The notes under the pieces are model-generated. The model had not been told where the DNA came from. It did not search any database and saw only the letters and a list, made by a program, of their open reading frames with translations. This document shows positions 18,164 to 43,867 of a stretch of DNA of 64,000 bases, piece after piece. This stretch comes from a virus: the UHGV virus genome UHGV-0117634. One strand, given 5' to 3'. The position numbers and the translations under genes were made by a program. Within the stretch, counting starts at the first letter, position 1; every line of letters starts with the position of its first letter.

Positions 18164-18190
18164 AAAGGCTCCCGTAAAAAGGAGCCTTAT
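18164..18190. terminator. Bidirectional intrinsic terminator between convergent thyA and minus-strand gene
   Basis: AGGCTCC-CGTAAAAA-GGAGCCT hairpin flanked by A-run upstream and T-rich downstream. Confidence 0.6.
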
Positions 18191-18192
18191 AG

Positions 18193-18567
18193 TTATTTCT
18201 TTTTAGTGCTTTGGGTATTTTGTTCTGTAATTGCCTGCAAAGCTGATACAGATTGTGCTAAGTTGTTAACACTGTCAGAGAACTTATCAAGGGTCTTAGT
18301 CAACTTAGCGTTTTCTCCCTTAACATTCTCTAGCTGAACTTTCTGGTTCTCCATCCCTAATTGTAGGAGCTTCATATCAGATTGTAAGTCACGAATAGCT
18401 GAATAGTTACCTTTTGAGTAACCATCCAACTGCTGTAACTTATTTGTGATAGACACTTCCTGTTTACCATCAGAGACCTGCATTGTAGTGTACATACCAA
18501 TTACACTGAAAATACCTACAACGATTGCACCAATATTATTCTTAAAAGCATCTTCAAGCCACTTCAT
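18193..18567 (-). CDS. membrane-anchored coiled-coil protein, hypothetical
   Basis: N-terminal hydrophobic segment then coiled-coil. Confidence 0.4.
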   Translation of the reverse strand: MKWLEDAFKNNIGAIVVGIFSVIGMYTTMQVSDGKQEVSITNKLQQLDGYSKGNYSAIRDLQSDMKLLQLGMENQKVQLENVKGENAKLTKTLDKFSDSVNNLAQSVSALQAITEQNTQSTKKK

Positions 18568-18761
18568 TATTTCTCACCTTTAAAAGCCTTTTCCAAGGTA
18601 TCTACAAATTCATCATCAATAGGTGTATCTGTTTTACTCGCAAGGTATCTTGCAAGCTTAAAGAACACTTTTTCAATCATGTATTCGCTAAGAAGAGAAA
18701 GTAGAAGCTTCCAGAAGAATGCCCCAAGATTTTTCAAGAGGATTGCTAGAATGGTTGGCAT
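18567..18761 (-). CDS. small membrane protein, hypothetical
   Basis: 64 aa with N-terminal hydrophobic helix. Confidence 0.35.
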   Translation of the reverse strand: MPTILAILLKNLGAFFWKLLLSLLSEYMIEKVFFKLARYLASKTDTPIDDEFVDTLEKAFKGEK

Positions 18762-18847: not shown

Positions 18848-21223
18848 TTATGCAGTTCTTACCCAAGCCATTAGTTTAATGTAAGTGTTAAGAACACTGA
18901 ATGCTGCACCAGAACCAGTTGCCCTAGTGTTACCACTGAATGTGTGGTTGTGTCTACCAATACCTACACCGTGACCATGAGCACCTACCCAACTAGTTCT
19001 ACCTGTCCAAGTTCTGGAAGCATAGAAGTTAACTGGCGCACCATAAGTGAAGTTAGAACCAGTGAAACTATGACCACCTTGGCTACCACTCATTGCAAAA
19101 GCACCGTCTGCAAGGTAAAATGACTCATTATCACTTCTAAACCATCCAAAGTTACCAGAGATTTCCATATTACCTCTGTCGTGGTCGTGAGCACCATTAA
19201 CATCTGTGTACTTAGTACCATAGTCAAACCAAGAAGTTGTTCCAGAGAAGCTGTGAGTGTGTGCAGGGATGTGACCAACACTTAATGCAACCGTATCAGC
19301 ACCACCAAGACCCTTCACATCAGAACCATTTTCAGAACCAATCCTAATAGTTCTGTTTGCACCCTCAGTTAAGTAAGTCCAAGTAGTGCCTGGGAAAGCT
19401 GTATTTGGGTTGACATTAGAAGCAAAGAACGCCACAATACCAACCGGATACACTTTCTTAAGGTCTGTAGCATCAGTTACAGCGGAAGCAATACGTTGGT
19501 CCACTTCAGCCTTGGTGTAAGCACCAAGTTCAGAGGGTGTAGGTTTGTCTTTGTCGGTGTAGATTTTAGCCCAAGCCTCTTCAAAACCAAACCCATCCCT
19601 TGCTGTTCTATAATAGATTCCAGTATTCTTGTAGTTAAATTTAAACTGTGCAGTTGGTGTAGATGCACCAACTCCAAGGTACATTTGGTAAACTAAGTGA
19701 GTAGACCCACCAGTTGAATTTGTAACACTGTACAAACCTGTTTTTGCATCCCAAGCAACACCTGTGCCATCACCTACTTCTGTTCCAGTTCCAGATACAC
19801 CAGACAACATATATCTTGAGTTTGCAGCAGATTGTGTGTAGTATCTTGAGTCAAAGTTTGACCAATCGCTTGGTCTTACTTGTCCAACAATATTCATATG
19901 TGTATTCACATCTAAATCAGTACCAATATTGATTGCCTTTCCTGTTACATCATTGTTAAGTACCACATTGTTTTGACCAGCATCACCAATACCCAACCAC
20001 CATCTCCTGCTCCCATTAGCATTATGTGCAGACATGTAGATTCCAGAGTCTTGTACTGTTGCCTGTAGTCTAAAAGGATTGTCGCTGTCAGTATTGATAG
20101 TCTGTGGACTAGTAAAAACGTTTGCAGCATTAGTTCTTGCAAGAACGTTCGTCAAAGAGCTTGGAACATATCTTGTATCAAAGTTAGAAAAGTCACTTGG
20201 TTTTACCTGACCAGCTACATTGATAGCTTTGTTAAATGAAAACTCTGTAGCAATTTTCAAGTTAACATTTGTCATCTGGTTTGCTAAAACAATCTCAGAC
20301 TGCGTACCATCTGGTTGACCTACATACCAAGCACCTGTCCCAGCACTGTTGTAACCACGCATAAATAATGCAGCATTCTCTGAAGCCGCTCTTAAGTTAA
20401 GTGCATTCCTATCTGCAATAACATAAGTCTTCCCGTTGAAGTTGTTAACCCCAACAAAGTTATTACTTGCATTAAGTCTTGCAAATCTCTGGTCAGCAGC
20501 AGTCTGTGTAAAGAATCTTGCATCAAGGTTGTTCCAGTTATTAGGCTGAACCTGACCATTGATTTTAAAGTTCTTGTCAACACTAACAGAGTTTGTACCA
20601 AGAGTCAACGTAGCACCTTTGCTGTTAACTAATGTAACATCAGTCCCAGAAGTCAAGTTACCAACTGTGAATCTCAAAGCATTATTTGAGTCTCTTGCTT
20701 CAATATATGCTCCACCATCTGGTAAGATGCTTTTAAGTGTCAAACCAACACCGTTGATATTAATGATTTGTCTTGCCAAGAAGGTATTTTCAGTTTCCTT
20801 CATAGCGTATCTTGCATCATTTTCAGTATTAGTTCTCATACCTAATTCATTAGGAGATGGTTTATTAAGTGTGTGATAAACTGTTGCAGACCTTGTGGCA
20901 TCATTTACAGTTAATCTTAAAGCACTTGCATTAATTCTAAAGGTCTTGGCAGTGTCACCGAGAATAACCTCAGAAGAACCTGTTGGGTCTAATAAGTCTT
21001 TTCCACCGTATCTTAATTTGACGATGCCAAGATTCCCTGTCATATCCCCACCAGTTAGTTGTAAGAATCTTTCTAGTTTGAAAGAGGCAAGGAAATTTGC
21101 ATAGGTCATTTTACGGTCTTCATCACCTAGCATATCAGACCTTTTGATAATTCTTAGGTGAAGTAAATCTTCTGAGCGAACTGTATCAATACTGTTTAGC
21201 TCACTTAGCTTATATTCAGCCAT
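18848..21223 (-). CDS. tail fiber protein with His-rich C-terminal repeats
   Basis: 791 aa; repetitive beta-rich sequence; C-terminal HTHSFSG...HDHD...HGHGVGIGRHNHTFSG shared with next ORF. Confidence 0.7.
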   Translation of the reverse strand: MAEYKLSELNSIDTVRSEDLLHLRIIKRSDMLGDEDRKMTYANFLASFKLERFLQLTGGDMTGNLGIVKLRYGGKDLLDPTGSSEVILGDTAKTFRINASALRLTVNDATRSATVYHTLNKPSPNELGMRTNTENDARYAMKETENTFLARQIININGVGLTLKSILPDGGAYIEARDSNNALRFTVGNLTSGTDVTLVNSKGATLTLGTNSVSVDKNFKINGQVQPNNWNNLDARFFTQTAADQRFARLNASNNFVGVNNFNGKTYVIADRNALNLRAASENAALFMRGYNSAGTGAWYVGQPDGTQSEIVLANQMTNVNLKIATEFSFNKAINVAGQVKPSDFSNFDTRYVPSSLTNVLARTNAANVFTSPQTINTDSDNPFRLQATVQDSGIYMSAHNANGSRRWWLGIGDAGQNNVVLNNDVTGKAINIGTDLDVNTHMNIVGQVRPSDWSNFDSRYYTQSAANSRYMLSGVSGTGTEVGDGTGVAWDAKTGLYSVTNSTGGSTHLVYQMYLGVGASTPTAQFKFNYKNTGIYYRTARDGFGFEEAWAKIYTDKDKPTPSELGAYTKAEVDQRIASAVTDATDLKKVYPVGIVAFFASNVNPNTAFPGTTWTYLTEGANRTIRIGSENGSDVKGLGGADTVALSVGHIPAHTHSFSGTTSWFDYGTKYTDVNGAHDHDRGNMEISGNFGWFRSDNESFYLADGAFAMSGSQGGHSFTGSNFTYGAPVNFYASRTWTGRTSWVGAHGHGVGIGRHNHTFSGNTRATGSGAAFSVLNTYIKLMAWVRTA

Positions 21224-21267
21224 TTATAAATCCTCTTTCTAGGGGCTGTGTAGCCCCTTATAAATAA

Positions 21268-22443
21268 TTACGCAGTTCTCTTCCAAACATATACAACATA
21301 AGAAGGTTGCTCAATATTAAATGCTTGTCCAGCACCAAATGCACCAGTTGTACCTGAGTGAGTGTGCTCAGAAGATTGAACTGTCACAGTACCTGAGTGT
21401 CCATGTGAACCAATTGCAACGCTGTGTCCATGTGCTCCGATATACACACTGTGAGAGTGGTTACCACCAACTGAAGAGTTAACGTTGAAGGTATGTGTGT
21501 GAACCCCATCAAAGTCTGTATATGACGCATTACCAACACCTGCATCAGCCGTTGCCGTAATAGCGTTTACACCACCCCTGTCAGAACCCCTCAATGGAAT
21601 CCTGTGGCTGTGACTACCAGCACTGCTTACAGAACCATTAACATTATGAGCGTGGCTTCCAGAGTCGTTTGTGGCCTTAGAACCATAATCAAAACTTGAT
21701 GTGCTCTTAGTCCCATAGTCAAAGCTAGAAATTACTACTGTTGCATTATGGGAGTGTCCACCACCAGTTAACAACACAGAGTGTGTGTGACTTGGAATGT
21801 TATTTTGTGTAAGTGTTACAGTAGCAGAACCAAATACTGATTCTACAGGTCTTGTATCTGTGTCATAACCGACAAGAGACCTTCCTTTAGAAACTAACTC
21901 CCAAGTACCACCACAAAGTAAATATGTAGATGGGTTTGCAGGGTTAACTGACAAATGAATAGTACCAATTGGATAGCTATTCTGGATAGCTCTATATAAA
22001 GCATTCACAGCTTTTGCAGTAGCATACTTATCAGCATCTTCAGAGTAAGAGTTTGAATATGTCCAGTTTTGAATATTAGACAAACCTACTTGAATCTTGT
22101 TAGTGTTGTGAGGGTTATTCTTGTCATTAATGTGATTTTGAATAAGGGCATTAACTTCATCACTTGATAGAATATTAAGGTTCTGTCTAGCCTCTTCAAC
22201 ACTAACCACGTCTGACAAGTTATTAGCAGCCACTAATTGGAGTGCGTTAACAACATTACCAAGTTCTACGTGAACCTTTGTAACACCGTGTGGGTTATTT
22301 CTTAAAGATGCGTGTGGAGCAAGTAATTGCTCAAGTGTGCATCGTTTATCCTCAATACCTTGCTTCAGGTGAAAGATATCACTTAAATCAATCGGTAATG
22401 AGGCTTGAGGCAATGCACTAATTTGAATTTCACCGACTGCCAT
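21268..22443 (-). CDS. tail fiber protein with His-rich C-terminal repeats
   Basis: 391 aa; HTHS/HSHN/HAHN/HGHS repeats; same C-terminal ...RTA ending as 18848..21223. Confidence 0.7.
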   Translation of the reverse strand: MAVGEIQISALPQASLPIDLSDIFHLKQGIEDKRCTLEQLLAPHASLRNNPHGVTKVHVELGNVVNALQLVAANNLSDVVSVEEARQNLNILSSDEVNALIQNHINDKNNPHNTNKIQVGLSNIQNWTYSNSYSEDADKYATAKAVNALYRAIQNSYPIGTIHLSVNPANPSTYLLCGGTWELVSKGRSLVGYDTDTRPVESVFGSATVTLTQNNIPSHTHSVLLTGGGHSHNATVVISSFDYGTKSTSSFDYGSKATNDSGSHAHNVNGSVSSAGSHSHRIPLRGSDRGGVNAITATADAGVGNASYTDFDGVHTHTFNVNSSVGGNHSHSVYIGAHGHSVAIGSHGHSGTVTVQSSEHTHSGTTGAFGAGQAFNIEQPSYVVYVWKRTA

Positions 22444-22445
22444 TA

Positions 22446-22745
22446 TTAGCTCCCTTTATATTCATATGTGTAAAGGTTAGTCGTGCTGGTGTGTGCAGTT
22501 CCTGTTACTGTTTCAATTAATTCCCAACCATTGGAAACTAAATCAGGTTGCTCCGTAGCAAATGAACGAACCTCTCCAACCGTACCATTTACTTTGTTAA
22601 GCAAATAGTTGATAATATAGTTAAACCACTGACGACCCATAGGTTCACCCCTTAATAGGCCAGTGGCTTGAATTTCTGGAGGTGGTAAAACTTTAAGCTG
22701 GTTACCGTCAGCATCAACTGTATCTGTAGACCATGAAAGAGACAT
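22446..22745 (-). CDS. hypothetical tail-associated protein
   Basis: ORF track, 99 aa, between baseplate and fiber genes. Confidence 0.4.
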
Positions 22746-23602
22746 TATGAACTTCCTTCTTGTTGAGATTTATCTTTTCTGCCTTTGACGATTTGGGCGA
22801 CTTCTGCCATAATCCCATAATCACCACCTGCTACTGTTTCTTTACCAGCAATGAAATAGTCGTTGCTATTGTTTGTTTTGCTGACTTTTAAATAATCTTT
22901 ACTGGTACTTCCACCAGTTTTATCCACTCTTACATAACCATCCCTTACACCTGCATCTGCAAAACTACCTAATTTGTTTGCTTCTAGAGAGCCACCTGTG
23001 TTGTTCGTAATAAGACCCTTGTTAGTGTTTGTTACAAACCAGTTATTGTTCTCATCAGTAATTGCCAGAGATGAATCAGCAACCTCTACAGGAGTCCAAG
23101 CAGTACCATTTAAGGTAACATCTCTAAGGATAACTGCTGAACCAATAGTTGTTGCAGCAATCTTAGAAAGTGTGTATGCTGTATCTAACACGTTATTACG
23201 AGTGTTTACACGGATAACAATTCCACCAGTCATTGGCGTAATGTGCTCAAAAATCTGACTGAATGATGCGTTGTAAAGGGTCATAACAGCCCTTTGTAAG
23301 AAGCTTGGTGTGGTGTCAGAACGTCTTAAGAAAATTTGAATGTAGAGGATAGCTCTGTAAGTGTCATCATCAGCACCAATAGGTCTAGGGACTTTAATCA
23401 AAGCCCCGATGTTATCAAGTTGTGTGCCAACACCTACACGAATATTCCTTTCAGTATATAACTGATTACTGATATCCTCTAATAATTGTAACTCATCTGT
23501 GATAGATTTCAATAGACTTGTGTAAATAAACTTATCTTTGAATTGAGTTACAGTTCTTTCGTCCAATGTTTTCTCATAAAAGTTTTCAATCTTTTTAAAC
23601 AT
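22745..23602 (-). CDS. baseplate/tail protein (P2 gpI-like position)
   Basis: Position downstream of J-like baseplate gene; start moved to internal ATG with GGAG SD. Confidence 0.45.
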
Positions 23603-23604
23603 TG

Positions 23605-25074
23605 TTACTCCTTGGTAATTGTATACTGTGAGCTTTCCCAAACAGTGTACTGGTCACCATCAATAGTGATTCTTGAAGTTGTGTACTGCCCCTCAGCAGG
23701 TGGAATTGCTTGGTTATTTGAAAGTGCAACCTTAATCTCATTAATCTCGATACCTTGAATCACATCATAGATATGTCCATAGATTCTGTTAGGGATTACA
23801 TCATTACCAACTTTCAAAGTTCTACCGTAGGCATTAATACCTTGAACAATTCTGTCATGAATATCCTGTTCAGGGATGTTAAGAGTTTCTTCATCGTAAA
23901 GAGAGTAAGTAACCTTGACAAAAACGTATTTAGGCATTGGTCTACTAAAGTAAACGTCGTGAGGAAGAGAACCTAAGTCATATGCAGTACCAAAGATTGT
24001 ACCAAATGGGCGAATACCAGCAGGTTTCGTGTCCCAGATTGCCTGTGCAATATTATCATTCTGACCACCAACTACAACAATCTTAAAAGACTTCGGAGGA
24101 AGACCGTCAGCGTTTGTTGTCTCAGTATCATTTTCTACACCAGAAGCATCAGACACACCTTGCACTCTCTTGACAGCAGCTACAATAGCATCTAGAGTAC
24201 CTACACCAGTAACAGCCAGAGATTCTAAGTAACGCTGTCTCAGTTCTGTGTCAGTTTCCTCATCACGACCTGTTGTCAAGTCATATCTGTTGAAAACACT
24301 ATCAAGACCATCTACAGTTGTTTCAATCTCAATCAAGGTTCCTGCAAGAGTCTGGATAGCTCCAGTTTCATCTGCTACAACGTCACTGATTGAAGTAATC
24401 TTTGTAAATGTTAAGAATGTCGTTGCAGTAACAACCATAGGGTTAGTTCTGGCAATGATATCTCCAGTGTCTTTATAGATTCTTAGGACTGAACCATCAT
24501 TAATAACTTCAGCCTTTGCAATAATACCACCATTGATAGCATCTGCAAGTTTCTGTAGCAATGTTGTAATGGTGTCAGAGCTAGTCGGCTGATATGAATA
24601 CTCAATGTTGTCAATGATAATAACATAGTTTGCATCTGTTCGTAAAGAGTTAACTTCTAAGTTTGCCTCTACACAGTAAGATGGAGTCAGCGTGAAAGTT
24701 GACACAGGGTAAAAGATGTTACCTGCTGTGCTTCTTAGTCTTGTAGTGGCTGGTACAGGAGCACCAGAATTACCAGTGAACTCAGCTTGACCTCTTGTAG
24801 CCTGCGCCACATATCTGTATACAGCATTCAAAGCTGTTACATCATCTAAACTGAATCCTTCAGCTTTGTCAATAGTACCACCGTCATAAATTTCTGACAA
24901 GATTTCATGAACGTCTGCAAGACCTCGGCAAACAGAAGCTAAGAATAACCCAAGTTCGCTATCTTCAGAAACATCAAGGTTTGGTGAGATATCTCTATAC
25001 AGACTTGCTTTAACATCATCCAAGATTTCTTGATATCTTTTTGTTTGTAAACCTGTAGTTGTTAATCCAGCCAT
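23605..25074 (-). CDS. baseplate J-like protein (putative)
   Basis: 489 aa; size and synteny in contractile-tail baseplate module. Confidence 0.5.

Positions 25075-25489: not shown

Positions 25490-25490
<1 letters not shown>
25074..25490 (-). CDS. baseplate wedge protein (gp25/gpW-like, putative)
   Basis: 138 aa; size and synteny. Confidence 0.45.
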
Positions 25491-28251
<2,761 letters not shown>

Positions 28252-42188: not shown

Positions 42189-42264
42189 TGGAGTATCGGA
42201 AGGGACTCGAACCCTCATAAACCTGTTTTGCAGACAGGCACATAACCATTTCTGACACCGACAC
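42189..42264 (-). tRNA. tRNA-Cys (anticodon GCA)
   Basis: Hand-folded cloverleaf: 7-bp acceptor, T-loop TTCGAGT, anticodon loop CTGCAAA, encoded CCA. Confidence 0.75.
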
Positions 42265-42270
42265 ATAATT

Positions 42271-42364
42271 TGGAGGAAGATACCAGACTTGAACTGGTAC
42301 GCCGATTTCTCGGTTACTGGCAGTTTAGCAAACTGCTCCCTTACCTTTTAGGGTTAATCTTCCA
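42271..42364 (-). tRNA. tRNA-Ser (anticodon GCT), class II
   Basis: Acceptor GGAAGAT/ATCTTCC, anticodon loop TTGCTAA, long variable arm, T-loop TTCAAGT, CCA. Confidence 0.7.
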
Positions 42365-43098
42365 TTATTTGTTCAGAGCTTCTTTCATCTCTGGAGTTGC
42401 GATAGTATCAATCACACCAGTTTTACATGAATCATCAAACCAGCTTGGTAGAACATTCGCAAGGAAACCATTAATATTTGTTTTCAGGTATTCTGCAATC
42501 AGTGCTGCTTCATCTGCAATCATCTGAGTTACTTCATTAGCATATGCAGTAATCTTTGCAATACCCTCATTAATTGCTGTAACGGCCTGTGTAGCGAGTT
42601 CAGAGATTGTATCTAGTCCTTGGTCGATTGCATCTTGCAAATCGCTTAGAACGCCATTTACAGCGTCTATGGAGGTATTAATCAAATCCATCGCTTTATT
42701 ACCGTACTCGGTAGCTACGCCCATGATACCGCTAAACGGTGTACATCCAACCTGTTCACCTGCTGCTCCCATAACGTTAGAGTAACCTTTAGCTACTTGC
42801 ATACGTTGTGAAAACTCATCTACAGACTTTTGTCCATACTCAGTAAGTGTACTTGTCGTTGAAGTTGTACTTCCAAGGCTTGTTGTGAAGCTTCCTAATA
42901 AGGCTGTTGTCAGTCCAGCAGCAACTAAAATCTGTTGTGTAGCTGGGTCTGTTACAGAACTAATTGAGTTAACTAATGATTGAGAGGCAGCTATAGTACC
43001 ACCAAGAACTGCTGCACCAGTAATAAGAGGGTTTGAGAAACCATTACCGGTTTTAAGGAGATTAAAAATCTCTTTACTTTGTTCTGTCATCTCTTTCA
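42365..43098 (-). CDS. hypothetical protein embedded in tRNA cluster (Gly/Ala/Thr/Ser-rich N-region, helical C-region)
   Basis: ORF trimmed to internal ATG with AGGTG SD because the track N-terminus overlaps a tRNA; about 244 aa. Confidence 0.5.
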
Positions 43099-43114
43099 TT
43101 ATGCACCTATAAAG

Positions 43115-43191
43115 TTGGTAGCCCATCGGGATTTGAACCCTGTTCTCATGTTTTTCAGACACGCGCTTTAACCATATAAGCTAATTGAGCT
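43115..43191 (-). tRNA. tRNA-Phe (anticodon GAA), atypical D-arm and T-stem
   Basis: Acceptor TAGCTCA/TGGGCTA, anticodon arm CGTGT-CTGAAAA-ACATG, T-loop TTCAAAT; only 3 clean T-stem pairs. Confidence 0.55.
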
Positions 43192-43197
43192 ATTAAA

Positions 43198-43274
43198 TTG
43201 GGGTGACCTACGGGAATCGAACCCGTATAGACCATGTTCACAGCATGGGTCATTATCCATTTATGATAAGGCCA
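43198..43274 (-). tRNA. tRNA-His (anticodon GTG)
   Basis: Anticodon arm CCATG-CTGTGAA-CATGG, T-arm ACGGG-TTCGATT-CCCGT, discriminator C, CCA. Confidence 0.7.
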
Positions 43275-43305
43275 CATTTAAGGACTCTCGTAAGAACCCT
43301 TAGAA

Positions 43306-43381
43306 GTGGCAGCAGTATAAGGATTTGAACCTTAATCTTTCAGCTTCAGAGGCTGGAGCATTGCCAGTTATGCTATACTGC
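43306..43381 (-). tRNA. tRNA-Gln (anticodon CTG)
   Basis: Canonical 76-nt fold; anticodon loop CTCTGAA; T-arm TAAGG-TTCAAAT-CCTTA; CCA. Confidence 0.65.
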
Positions 43382-43387
43382 TAATAT

Positions 43388-43459
43388 TTGGTACTCCATA
43401 TCGGATTCGAACCGATACATAACACAGATTTTAAGTCTGGCCTCTCTGCCAATTGGAGT
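43388..43459 (-). tRNA. tRNA-like gene, atypical (short D region; anticodon loop CTTAAAA, anticodon TAA)
   Basis: 7-bp acceptor TACTCCA/TGGAGTA, T-arm with TTCGAAT, but truncated D-arm and no long variable arm. Confidence 0.45.
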
Positions 43460-43468
43460 AATGGAGCA

Positions 43469-43544
43469 TTGGCGGGGGATGTTGGAATTGAACCAACTTC
43501 TTCGATTTCAAAGACCGAGGTTTTAACCTTGTAAACTAATCCCC
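43469..43544 (-). tRNA. tRNA-Gln (anticodon TTG)
   Basis: Anticodon arm TCGGT-CTTTGAA-ATCGA, T-arm GTTGG-TTCAATT-CCAAC, CCA; A1-C72 mismatch. Confidence 0.7.
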
Positions 43545-43771
43545 TAACTAACTCTTGTAAGAATATATGCGTTATTGCATGTATCTTTATTTTCTGGCAA
43601 CATTGTTTCAAAGATAACTTGCTTTAATTCCAAACCAGCAAAGTTGTAGACAATCTTTCTAACTTCTAATGGGTCAGCTTTCCAGCCAACTCTGATAAAG
43701 AAAGTATCTCCAAATCTCCCTGTTTCAAGCTTGTCATCTTCTGGGTGTTTTTCAACTATGAGTTTAAACAT
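43544..43771 (-). CDS. hypothetical small protein within tRNA cluster
   Basis: 75 aa; AAGGG SD-like sequence upstream; stop abuts tRNA-Gln. Confidence 0.35.
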   Translation of the reverse strand: MFKLIVEKHPEDDKLETGRFGDTFFIRVGWKADPLEVRKIVYNFAGLELKQVIFETMLPENKDTCNNAYILTRVS

Positions 43772-43790
43772 AAGTTACCCTTTTAAATTT

Positions 43791-43867
43791 GGTGCAGAAT
43801 AAGGGATTCGAACCCCTAACTAACAACTTCGTAGGTTGCTGCTCTGTCCATTTGAACTAATTCTGCA
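43791..43867 (-). tRNA. tRNA-Arg (anticodon ACG)
   Basis: Acceptor GCAGAAT/ATTCTGC, anticodon arm GCAAC-CTACGAA-GTTGT, T-arm AGGGG-TTCGAAT-CCCTT, CCA. Confidence 0.75.

Follow-up and report, generated by a model that had tools for sequence, protein, structure and literature searches.

Predicted T4 gp37-type tips on both tail fibres of a Mooglevirus phage

In the 64,000-nucleotide (nt) stretch of the virus genome UHGV-0117634 analysed here (hereafter the window), two adjacent open reading frames (ORFs) of 791 and 391 amino acids (aa) very probably encode the long and the short tail fibre of a Mooglevirus, both carrying a tip of the T4 gp37 type. The long fibre gene (18848..21223, minus strand) is the ortholog of gp53 of Shigella phage Sf14 and gp27 of Escherichia phage Bas63, and the short fibre gene (21268..22443, minus strand) is the ortholog of Sf14 gp52 and Bas63 gp26; an initial annotation, made from the letters of the DNA, had already read both ORFs as tail fibres, and both were recovered at these positions and on this strand. 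Judged by sequence homology, the C-terminal module of each fibre is a gp37-type tip, i.e., a collar of the gp10/gp12 type into which a needle with H-x-H motifs is inserted, together with a hypervariable head. Tips of this type with H-x-H motifs on both fibres of an Ounavirinae phage are already published, for Bas63 in 2025 (PMC12609058), and the long-fibre head type, which has neither His pairs nor a solved structure, is the only mildly new element.

On DNA identity the window is assigned to Mooglevirus (Ounavirinae), the phage being a Felix-O1-like myovirus. The 5.7 kb around the fibre genes were 95-98% identical to Mooglevirus phages (Shigella phages Sf14, SFPB and ESh19 and Citrobacter phage BSwM KMM2), and the DNA identity between Sf14 and the window was ~97%. 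At the protein level, the short fibre is identical to Sf14 gp52 at 390 of 391 residues, with one difference, and the long fibre differs from Sf14 gp53 at 93 of 793 aligned positions, which are mostly found in one mosaic patch (aa 372-455, third shaft repeat) and in the head. Among PHROG families, phrog_4277 (tail fiber) matched the long fibre over its full length with 1284 bits, and phrog_2097 matched the short fibre at 4e-131.

The C-terminal modules and the T4 gp37 tip

The long fibre contains four H-x-H motifs (aa 655 HTH, 679 HDH, 749 HGH and 758 HNH) and the short fibre nine (aa 219 HTH, 230 HSH, 264 HAH, 278 HSH, 315 HTH, 329 HSH, 338 HGH, 347 HGH and 360 HTH), and the five tetrapeptides from which the initial annotation had concluded that such motifs cluster in both fibres (HTHS, HSHN, HAHN, HGHS and HNHT) were all found. 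Given that the modules are rich in Gly, Ser and Thr and that His makes up 8% of the short-fibre module, the enrichment might be a compositional accident of a low-complexity fibre rich in Gly, Ser, Thr and His. The chance expectation was determined with 20,000 residue shuffles of the C-terminal 240 aa and of the whole proteins. Shuffling of the C-terminal 240 aa gave on average 0.37 motifs in the long fibre, against the four observed (P = 1e-4), and 1.41 in the short fibre, for which none of the 20,000 shuffles reached nine; in whole-protein shuffles the observed counts were never reached for either fibre. With motif counts this far above those of same-composition sequences (P at most 1e-4), and with motif positions that are kept across homologues and are homologous to those of a solved metal-binding structure, we give next to no credence to an accident of composition. 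The two modules are also homologous to each other (BLASTP, 29% identity over 242 aa, E = 3e-16), and the RTA terminus that had been described as common to them is part of a longer ending, W-x-R-T-A (...AWVRTA in the long fibre and ...VWKRTA in the short fibre), which occurs family-wide as W-x-R-(T/S)-A and has ...IVRLA as its equivalent in T4 gp37.

The likeness to metal-coordinating fibre tips of the gp37 type, put forward in the initial annotation as a resemblance, proved to be one of true homology, seen both in matches to the gp37 tip crystal structure 2XGF and in motifs that stand in register with the iron-binding ones. Comparison of the short fibre (aa 146-363) with 2XGF gave E = 4e-25, and the profiles of the short-fibre (A1) and long-fibre (A2) family alignments, built from 36 homologues of each module, matched 2XGF at 2e-30 and 8e-18, respectively. 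The T4 gp37 collar, D10, consists of residues 811-881 and 1010-1026, and the needle, D11 (882-1009), is inserted in it (PMC6957217). In the short fibre, the Pfam domain Gp10_C (PF21939) was found at aa 155-390 (profile positions 4-139, 63.5 bits, above the 27-bit cut-off), and since the 139 positions of this domain are spread over 200-235 residues in the two fibres, a large insertion, the needle, is indicated within the collar. The presence of a collar in the long fibre is supported by the match of the A2 profile to T4 gp10 (2FKK, 4e-5).

A three-way alignment placed the gp37 motifs 883, 915, 929, 966, 980, 989 and 998 opposite the short-fibre motifs 219, 264, 278, 315, 329, 338 and 347, so that seven of seven T4 motifs are aligned with a near-identical spacing (14, 37, 14, 9 and 9), and the two additional short-fibre motifs (230 and 360) sit within small insertions, one per strand, at the ends nearest the collar. 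In the long fibre, 883, 915, 989 and 998 correspond to 655, 679, 749 and 758, and counterparts of 929, 966 and 980 are absent; residues 679/681 align with gp37 His915/917, and the 749 and 758 motifs align with His989/991 and His998/1000. In T4 gp37 these H-x-H motifs bind seven iron ions, with His929 and His931 being essential, and the tip subdomain 932-959 binds lipopolysaccharide (LPS) and OmpC (PMC6957217). A collar split by the needle and FDYGTK units are common to T4 gp37 and the fibres studied here, as are, in the short fibre, seven motifs in register.

The short fibre begins with a predicted N-terminal attachment region and helical shaft containing NNPH repeats (aa 1-145, 22009..22443, on the minus strand like all other fibre segments), for which the mean identity in A1 was 0.72 and for which AlphaFold2 gave a mainly helical secondary structure at aa 37-156. 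The N-terminal part of the predicted collar (aa 146-221, 21781..22008) ends with the first H-x-H motif in IPSHTH and matched the C-terminal domain of T4 gp10 (2FKK, 5HX2) at about 5e-7. It is followed by the putative ascending needle strand (aa 222-280, 21604..21780), which carries the motifs at 230, 264 and 278 and two FDYG(T/S)K units marked in the DNA by repeat family D2, and then by the hypervariable head (aa 281-314, 21502..21603), the presumed receptor-binding tip. The first 28 residues of the head align with the T4 gp37 tip subdomain (aa 932-959), and the stretch between the flanking H-x-H motifs is 34 aa long in the short fibre and equally long in T4. The putative descending strand (aa 315-362, 21358..21501) contains the motifs at 315, 329, 338, 347 and 360 and a tandem 9-aa IGxHxHxV unit, which is a 27-nt tandem repeat in the DNA (family D4). 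The C-terminal part of the collar (aa 363-391, 21271..21357) ends with VYVWKRTA, the Gp10_C hit reaching profile position 139 of 139.

For the long fibre, Pfam returned gp37_trimer three times, gp37_C and a weak Gp10_C. Its N-terminal region (aa 1-70, 21014..21223) is presumed to be a baseplate-binding domain by analogy with Bas63 (PMC12609058). The shaft (aa about 150-473, 19805..20776) consists of three repeats of ~110 aa, matched by gp37_trimer (PF20744, three stretches, E = 4e-45), and each repeat ends with GQV.P...N.D.R(F/Y), where GQV.P is found at aa 223, 338 and 447; in the DNA, the copies of repeat family D1 in the shaft are 327 and 345 nt apart. A predicted knob domain follows (aa 476-586, 19466..19798; gp37_C, PF12604, E = 1e-17), which is homologous to the phage Mu tail fibre protein S (PDB 8JU3, aa 476-581, E = 1.3e-21). 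The N-terminal part of the collar (aa 588-657, 19253..19462), recognized weakly by Gp10_C, ends with the first H-x-H motif in IPAHTH, and both His655 and His657 are invariant in A2. The putative ascending strand (aa 658-681, 19181..19252) has one FDYGTK unit and the second motif (HDH, 679-681) and leads to a hypervariable head of 67 aa (aa 682-748, 18980..19180; DRGNMEISG...ASRTWTGRTSWVGA) without any H-x-H, the presumed receptor-binding surface. The third and fourth motifs (HGH and HNH) lie in the putative descending strand (aa 749-760, 18944..18979; A2 conservation 0.77-1.0), and the C-terminal part of the collar (aa 761-791, 18851..18943) ends with LMAWVRTA, where the Gp10_C hit again reaches profile position 139 of 139. 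The patch of differences from Sf14 gp53 mentioned above (aa 372-455, window positions 19859-20110) falls in the third gp37_trimer repeat, with the adjoining repeats being nearly identical to those of Sf14 gp53, which suggests a recombinational replacement of one shaft repeat; an unexpected variability of β-helix repeats has been remarked on for Bas63 (PMC12609058).

Across the 35 homologues in each family, the motif His residues were 59-100% conserved and, except at the aa 264/266 and 679 motifs, at least 83% conserved; at these exceptions FDYG units stand in for H-x-H in some homologues. The short-fibre His at 315-349 reached 100% in A1, in comparison to 3-23% for the non-motif His at 58, 651 and 718. 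The short-fibre head had a mean identity of 0.20 and an entropy of 2.96 bits, as against 0.53-0.72 and about 1.0-1.5 bits in its flanks, and its 34 residues were spread over 83 columns of A1 with many length changes; for the long-fibre head, the mean identity to homologues was 0.24 as against 0.52-0.57 in the flanks. In both families the hypervariable segment sits exactly between the ascending and the descending motifs. Such a distribution is in keeping with motifs that serve the structure and a head that serves recognition.

Proposed metal sites, receptor contact and folding of the needle

We infer the trimeric state, the hairpin topology, the occupancy and identity of the metal and the receptor from homology and published work. 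On the model of T4 and Bas63, each fibre would be a homotrimer in which the C-terminal 200-245 residues form the gp37-type tip and a collar with the fold of T4 gp10/gp11/gp12 carries the inserted needle. Each chain would run out and back, giving the trimer a six-stranded needle, and one H-x-H motif from each of the three chains would provide six imidazoles to a single metal ion held on the three-fold axis, which in T4 is Fe2+. Such axial ions would stiffen the thin needle, and the small hypervariable head at the hairpin turn would contact the host receptor. If this topology holds, the RTA terminus and the His-rich stretch would by homology not be the distal end in space, RTA being the last collar strand at the base of the needle, and the receptor-binding determinants to be used in annotation would be the heads (aa 281-314 in the short fibre and 682-748 in the long fibre) and not the C-terminal residues. 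If all motifs were occupied, the metal ions bound to the fibres of one virion would number about 78 (6 × 9 + 6 × 4), a figure of minor interest for ideas about phage-bound iron.

The identity of the metal might differ from that in T4. The H-x-H motifs could be structural β-strand motifs that hold another metal (e.g., zinc), are partially occupied or hold no metal, in which case the picture of an iron needle would transfer incompletely. The first motif, IP(S/A)HTH, belongs to a collar-type domain common to gp10 and gp12, and the metal of the T4 short fibre gp12 is zinc; moreover, the FDYG units that replace H-x-H at equivalent needle positions in some homologues suggest that a needle layer is possible without metal, and three of the sites are lost in the long fibre. 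We nevertheless consider this rather unlikely and prefer axial metal sites as in T4, given that each of the seven iron sites of 2XGF has a motif in exact register with it, that these motifs are strongly conserved, and that the iron-binding His of T4 are essential for function (PMC6957217).

The receptor is most likely the LPS core, to go by published work on related phages: LPS has been reported or proposed as the receptor of Mooglevirus and its relatives (PMC12671091; PMC11821841). A different site of contact was suggested for gp52 in the Sf14 study, in which AlphaFold trimers were docked in a moderate-resolution map, with the C24-like domain placed centrally and with contacts proximal to the tip (PMC11821841), so that the receptor might be reached laterally by the needle or collar near mid-fibre and not by the hairpin head. 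The most variable segment in the 35 homologues, however, is the one between the third ascending and the first descending T4-equivalent H-x-H motif, which is the position of the T4 head, and it is the tip subdomain of T4 that binds LPS and OmpC (PMC6957217), while the head of Bas63 has been placed at the distal end (PMC12609058). Lateral contact is in our view distinctly improbable, and contact through the head at the hairpin turn is the reading kept here.

Several results weigh against the assignment of gp37-type tips to both fibres, or against parts of it. The long fibre alone matched 2XGF directly only at E = 9e-4, a weak match, and its Gp10_C hit (aa 589-790, profile positions 3-139, 24.5 bits) was below the curated 27-bit cut-off. 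It retains four of the seven T4 motifs, all collar-proximal; the three tip-proximal ones are replaced by the larger 67-aa head, leaving three metal sites missing. The AlphaFold2 monomers were of low confidence, with a mean predicted local distance difference test (pLDDT) score of 58 for the short fibre (full length, 36-sequence alignment) and 65 for the long-fibre module; AlphaFold2 folded single chains here, and gp37-type tips are obligate intertwined trimers. The heads scored below 50 and the collar alone was modelled with reasonable confidence, best in the N-terminal part of the short-fibre collar (pLDDT 76-85) and in the strand at aa 381-389 (pLDDT 78). Foldseek searches of the monomer models against PDB gave no significant match, so that these models speak neither for nor against a clustering of His in three dimensions; the best hits, of the same family yet weak, were the C-terminal domain of T4 gp10 (E about 0.05-0.1), then a Bizionia C24 protein and gp12. 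T4 gp37 needs gp38 to fold, and a tblastn search for a gp38-type chaperone with gp38 of T4 and of the T4-like Mosigvirus vB_EcoM-ZQ3 (ZQ3) against the 64-kb window, of a genome of about 88 kb, gave a best E of 1.2. Homologues of the Mu chaperones were likewise not found in the Sf14 genome, and the same paper put the 'C24-like domain' mid-fibre and not at the tip, which differs from the hairpin topology (PMC11821841).

Paralogy of the two modules and mobility of the head

From the shared module on two different shafts, the initial annotation had argued for an exchange of receptor-binding modules. The homology on which this rested is upheld, and the exchange between these two fibres is not. A recent exchange or copying of the module between the two fibre genes, by gene conversion or by a swap onto two shafts, would suit the adjacency of the genes, the homology of the modules and the short FDYGTK-coding repeats found in both genes (family D2, 34 nt, 74-82% identical). 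The modules, however, are only 28% identical (62.8 bits) and have much closer relatives in other phages and prophages: the long-fibre module matched prophage fibres of Erwinia, Photorhabdus and Pragia with 150-161 bits and 43-44% identity, and the short-fibre needle matched the T4 gp37 tip with 93 bits and 50% identity over 121 aa. A search for DNA repeats shared by the genes turned up short and imperfect ones and no long repeat, and the modules differ in motif number (4 vs 9) and in head type. Because the modules are distant, have closer relatives elsewhere and share no long DNA repeat, they are old paralogues of a widespread domain family, and a recent swap is very improbable. The N-termini of the two fibres (21120-21223 and 22318-22443) show a weak similarity (DLLHLR...EDRKMT vs DIFHLK...EDKRCT, score 31, shuffle P = 0.016), which, if it reflects distant kinship, suits an ancient tandem duplication; it is consistent with the conserved baseplate-binding domain of Bas63 and with an ancient tandem paralogy of the fibre genes.

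At the level of the head, by contrast with the whole module, sequence comparisons clearly point to real exchange, a cassette between H-x-H anchors moving between phage families. A near-T4 head (YIEAWNGTG...HSHTFSF) was found in the short fibre of one Felix-O1-like phage (P0019) and in the long fibre of phage REP7 (P0127), and the head type of the long fibre (HDHDRGNMEISG...ASRTWTGRTS) was also found in gp37 of ZQ3. In tblastn, ZQ3 gp37 was 60% identical to the long-fibre head over 80 of 91 query residues (aa 675-765), with H-x-H motifs on both sides of the cassette in the alignment. This head type is rare: out of 1.84 billion proteins, 51 representative clusters were retrieved at E ≤ 0.001, and a search with the long-fibre head alone (aa 675-765) against PDB sequences gave no hit even at E = 10. 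We tentatively propose, with slightly more doubt than confidence, that the 67-aa head (aa 682-748) is a distinct, structurally unsolved receptor-binding fold which moves as a cassette between Ounavirinae long fibres and Mosigvirus gp37, with the flanking G-x-H-x-H as recombination anchors, and that the needles fold without a gp38-like chaperone. In the two published Ounavirinae structure reports, neither the cassette head fold nor chaperone-free folding is apparently taken up. The 'His boxes' of gp37 have been reported, in work by Tétart, Desplats and Krisch in the 1990s, to serve as recombination sites in T-even phages. The conserved H-x-H units beside the heads would be natural splice points for host-range swaps among Felix-O1-like, T4-like and prophage fibres.

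Related fibres and the gene neighbourhood

The two fibres of Sf14, gp52 and gp53, were identified by cryo-electron microscopy as fibres of about 430 and 630 Å, in which a domain like the gp10 C-terminus and a 'C24-like' domain were described for gp52 and a 'gp37-like distal tip' for gp53; H-x-H motifs were discussed in that paper for the tail needle only and not for the fibres (PMC11821841). For Bas63 (Felixounavirus, November 2025), the tip of either fibre was described as gp37-like and as made up of a collar, a small head and a needle that bears conserved H-x-H motifs and is six-stranded because the chain turns back on itself; the domain organisation was stated to be identical to that of Sf14 gp53 and gp52 (PMC12609058). 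By the authors' counts, the Bas63 short fibre has seven motifs as compared to nine here, and the long fibre six as compared to four (PMC12609058).

The fibres differ from T4 gp37 in several respects. The head sequences are unrelated to that of T4, which implies a different receptor specificity, and the C-terminal collar strand is longer here (...VYVWKRTA vs ...NYIVRLA). The fibre that bears the tip here is formed by one protein and joins a simple Mu/P2-like baseplate directly, whereas the T4 fibre is built from four proteins and has a hinge, and the gp38-type chaperone gene that comes after the T4 fibre genes has no counterpart following the fibre genes here. The collar of T4 gp10/gp11/gp12 (PF21939 Gp10_C; related PF07484 Collar) matches both modules in its start, YP(I/V)G...W...IPxHTH, and in its terminal strand; in gp10, however, it is a compact domain and part of the baseplate, whereas here it contains a needle-plus-head insertion of 104-142 aa and would be located at the far end of the fibre. 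ZQ3 gp37, like some other fibres, has the 'RGNMEISG...ASR.W(T/S)G' head as here, yet in ZQ3 the collar and needle are of the T4 type, H-x-H motifs are more numerous, and a gp38-sized gene follows. The short-fibre needle is also matched by the side tail fibre Stf of lambda.

Prophage and tailocin-like fibres of Erwinia, Photorhabdus, Pragia and Pantoea have the same C-terminal collar and H-x-H module, 41-47% identical to the long-fibre module; their N-terminal shafts are entirely different (PF03406, PF03335, PF12571), they have one fibre gene and not two, and their heads differ. The Erwinia gene order, i.e., Baseplate_J, Wedge1 and fibre without a downstream chaperone, is as in the window. In this Erwinia contig (L003, 4001-4891), a module of the long-fibre type is found on a 296-aa fibre that closes a prophage/tailocin-like baseplate cluster, and in Photorhabdus (L005, 4001-5017), such a module belongs to a 338-aa fibre gene that is flanked by housekeeping genes and seems to be an orphan.

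The order of genes around the fibres is as in Sf14 and Bas63, with a Baseplate_J wedge, wedge 1, a 99-aa protein, the short fibre, the long fibre and two small ORFs (64 and 124 aa). The Baseplate_J wedge is encoded at 23605-25074, and the wedge 1/DUF2612 protein at 22745-23641 (minus strand), where the mechanically called ORF begins with TTG and has 37 nt in common with the Baseplate_J gene upstream of it; since both the PHROG profile and the 285-aa protein annotated in Sf14 begin at residue 14 (MFKKIENF...), translation probably starts from the ATG at 23602. The gene directly upstream of the short fibre gene (22446..22745, minus strand) encodes the 99-aa protein, which matched phrog_4141 (1.5e-60) and gave no Pfam hit. 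By synteny only, this protein would correspond to the 'LTF platform' (long tail fibre platform) of Bas63 (gp25, gp9-like), to which the long fibre attaches; its counterpart in Sf14 was described as a tentative gp11 homologue and was not detected in virions (PMC11821841).

The 44-nt gap between the fibre genes (21224-21267) contains a stem-loop, GGGGCT-ACAC-AGCCCC, immediately before the ribosome-binding site of the long fibre gene. In folding energy this stem-loop was indistinguishable from shuffled sequences (z = -1.6); it has no T-run and is not terminator-like. Downstream of the long fibre, on the minus strand, lie the ORFs of 64 aa (18567-18761) and 124 aa (18193-18567), which matched phrog_402 and phrog_4038, families of unknown function. 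The order of these small ORFs resembles that of T4 (g37, g38, holin t), yet neither is like gp38. In the 124-aa protein, a hydrophobic segment at the N-terminus precedes a long, coiled-coil-like tail; the counterpart of this protein in Sf14 is annotated as 'holin' and listed among the proteins detected in virions. A strong, bidirectional terminator-like hairpin at 18165-18188 (AAGGCTCC...GGAGCCTT, with T-runs on both strands) separates the end of the late structural operon from the thymidylate synthase gene, which converges on it.

Elsewhere in the window, a cluster of 25 transfer RNA genes (42189-47673, minus strand) is typical of Felix-O1-like phages. The tail needle (213 aa, 25490-26131, minus strand) has a single H-x-H motif near its C-terminus (HTH, aa 194-196), which corresponds to the site reported to bind iron in Sf14 gp47 and in Bas63 and would give the virion a third kind of H-x-H metal site.

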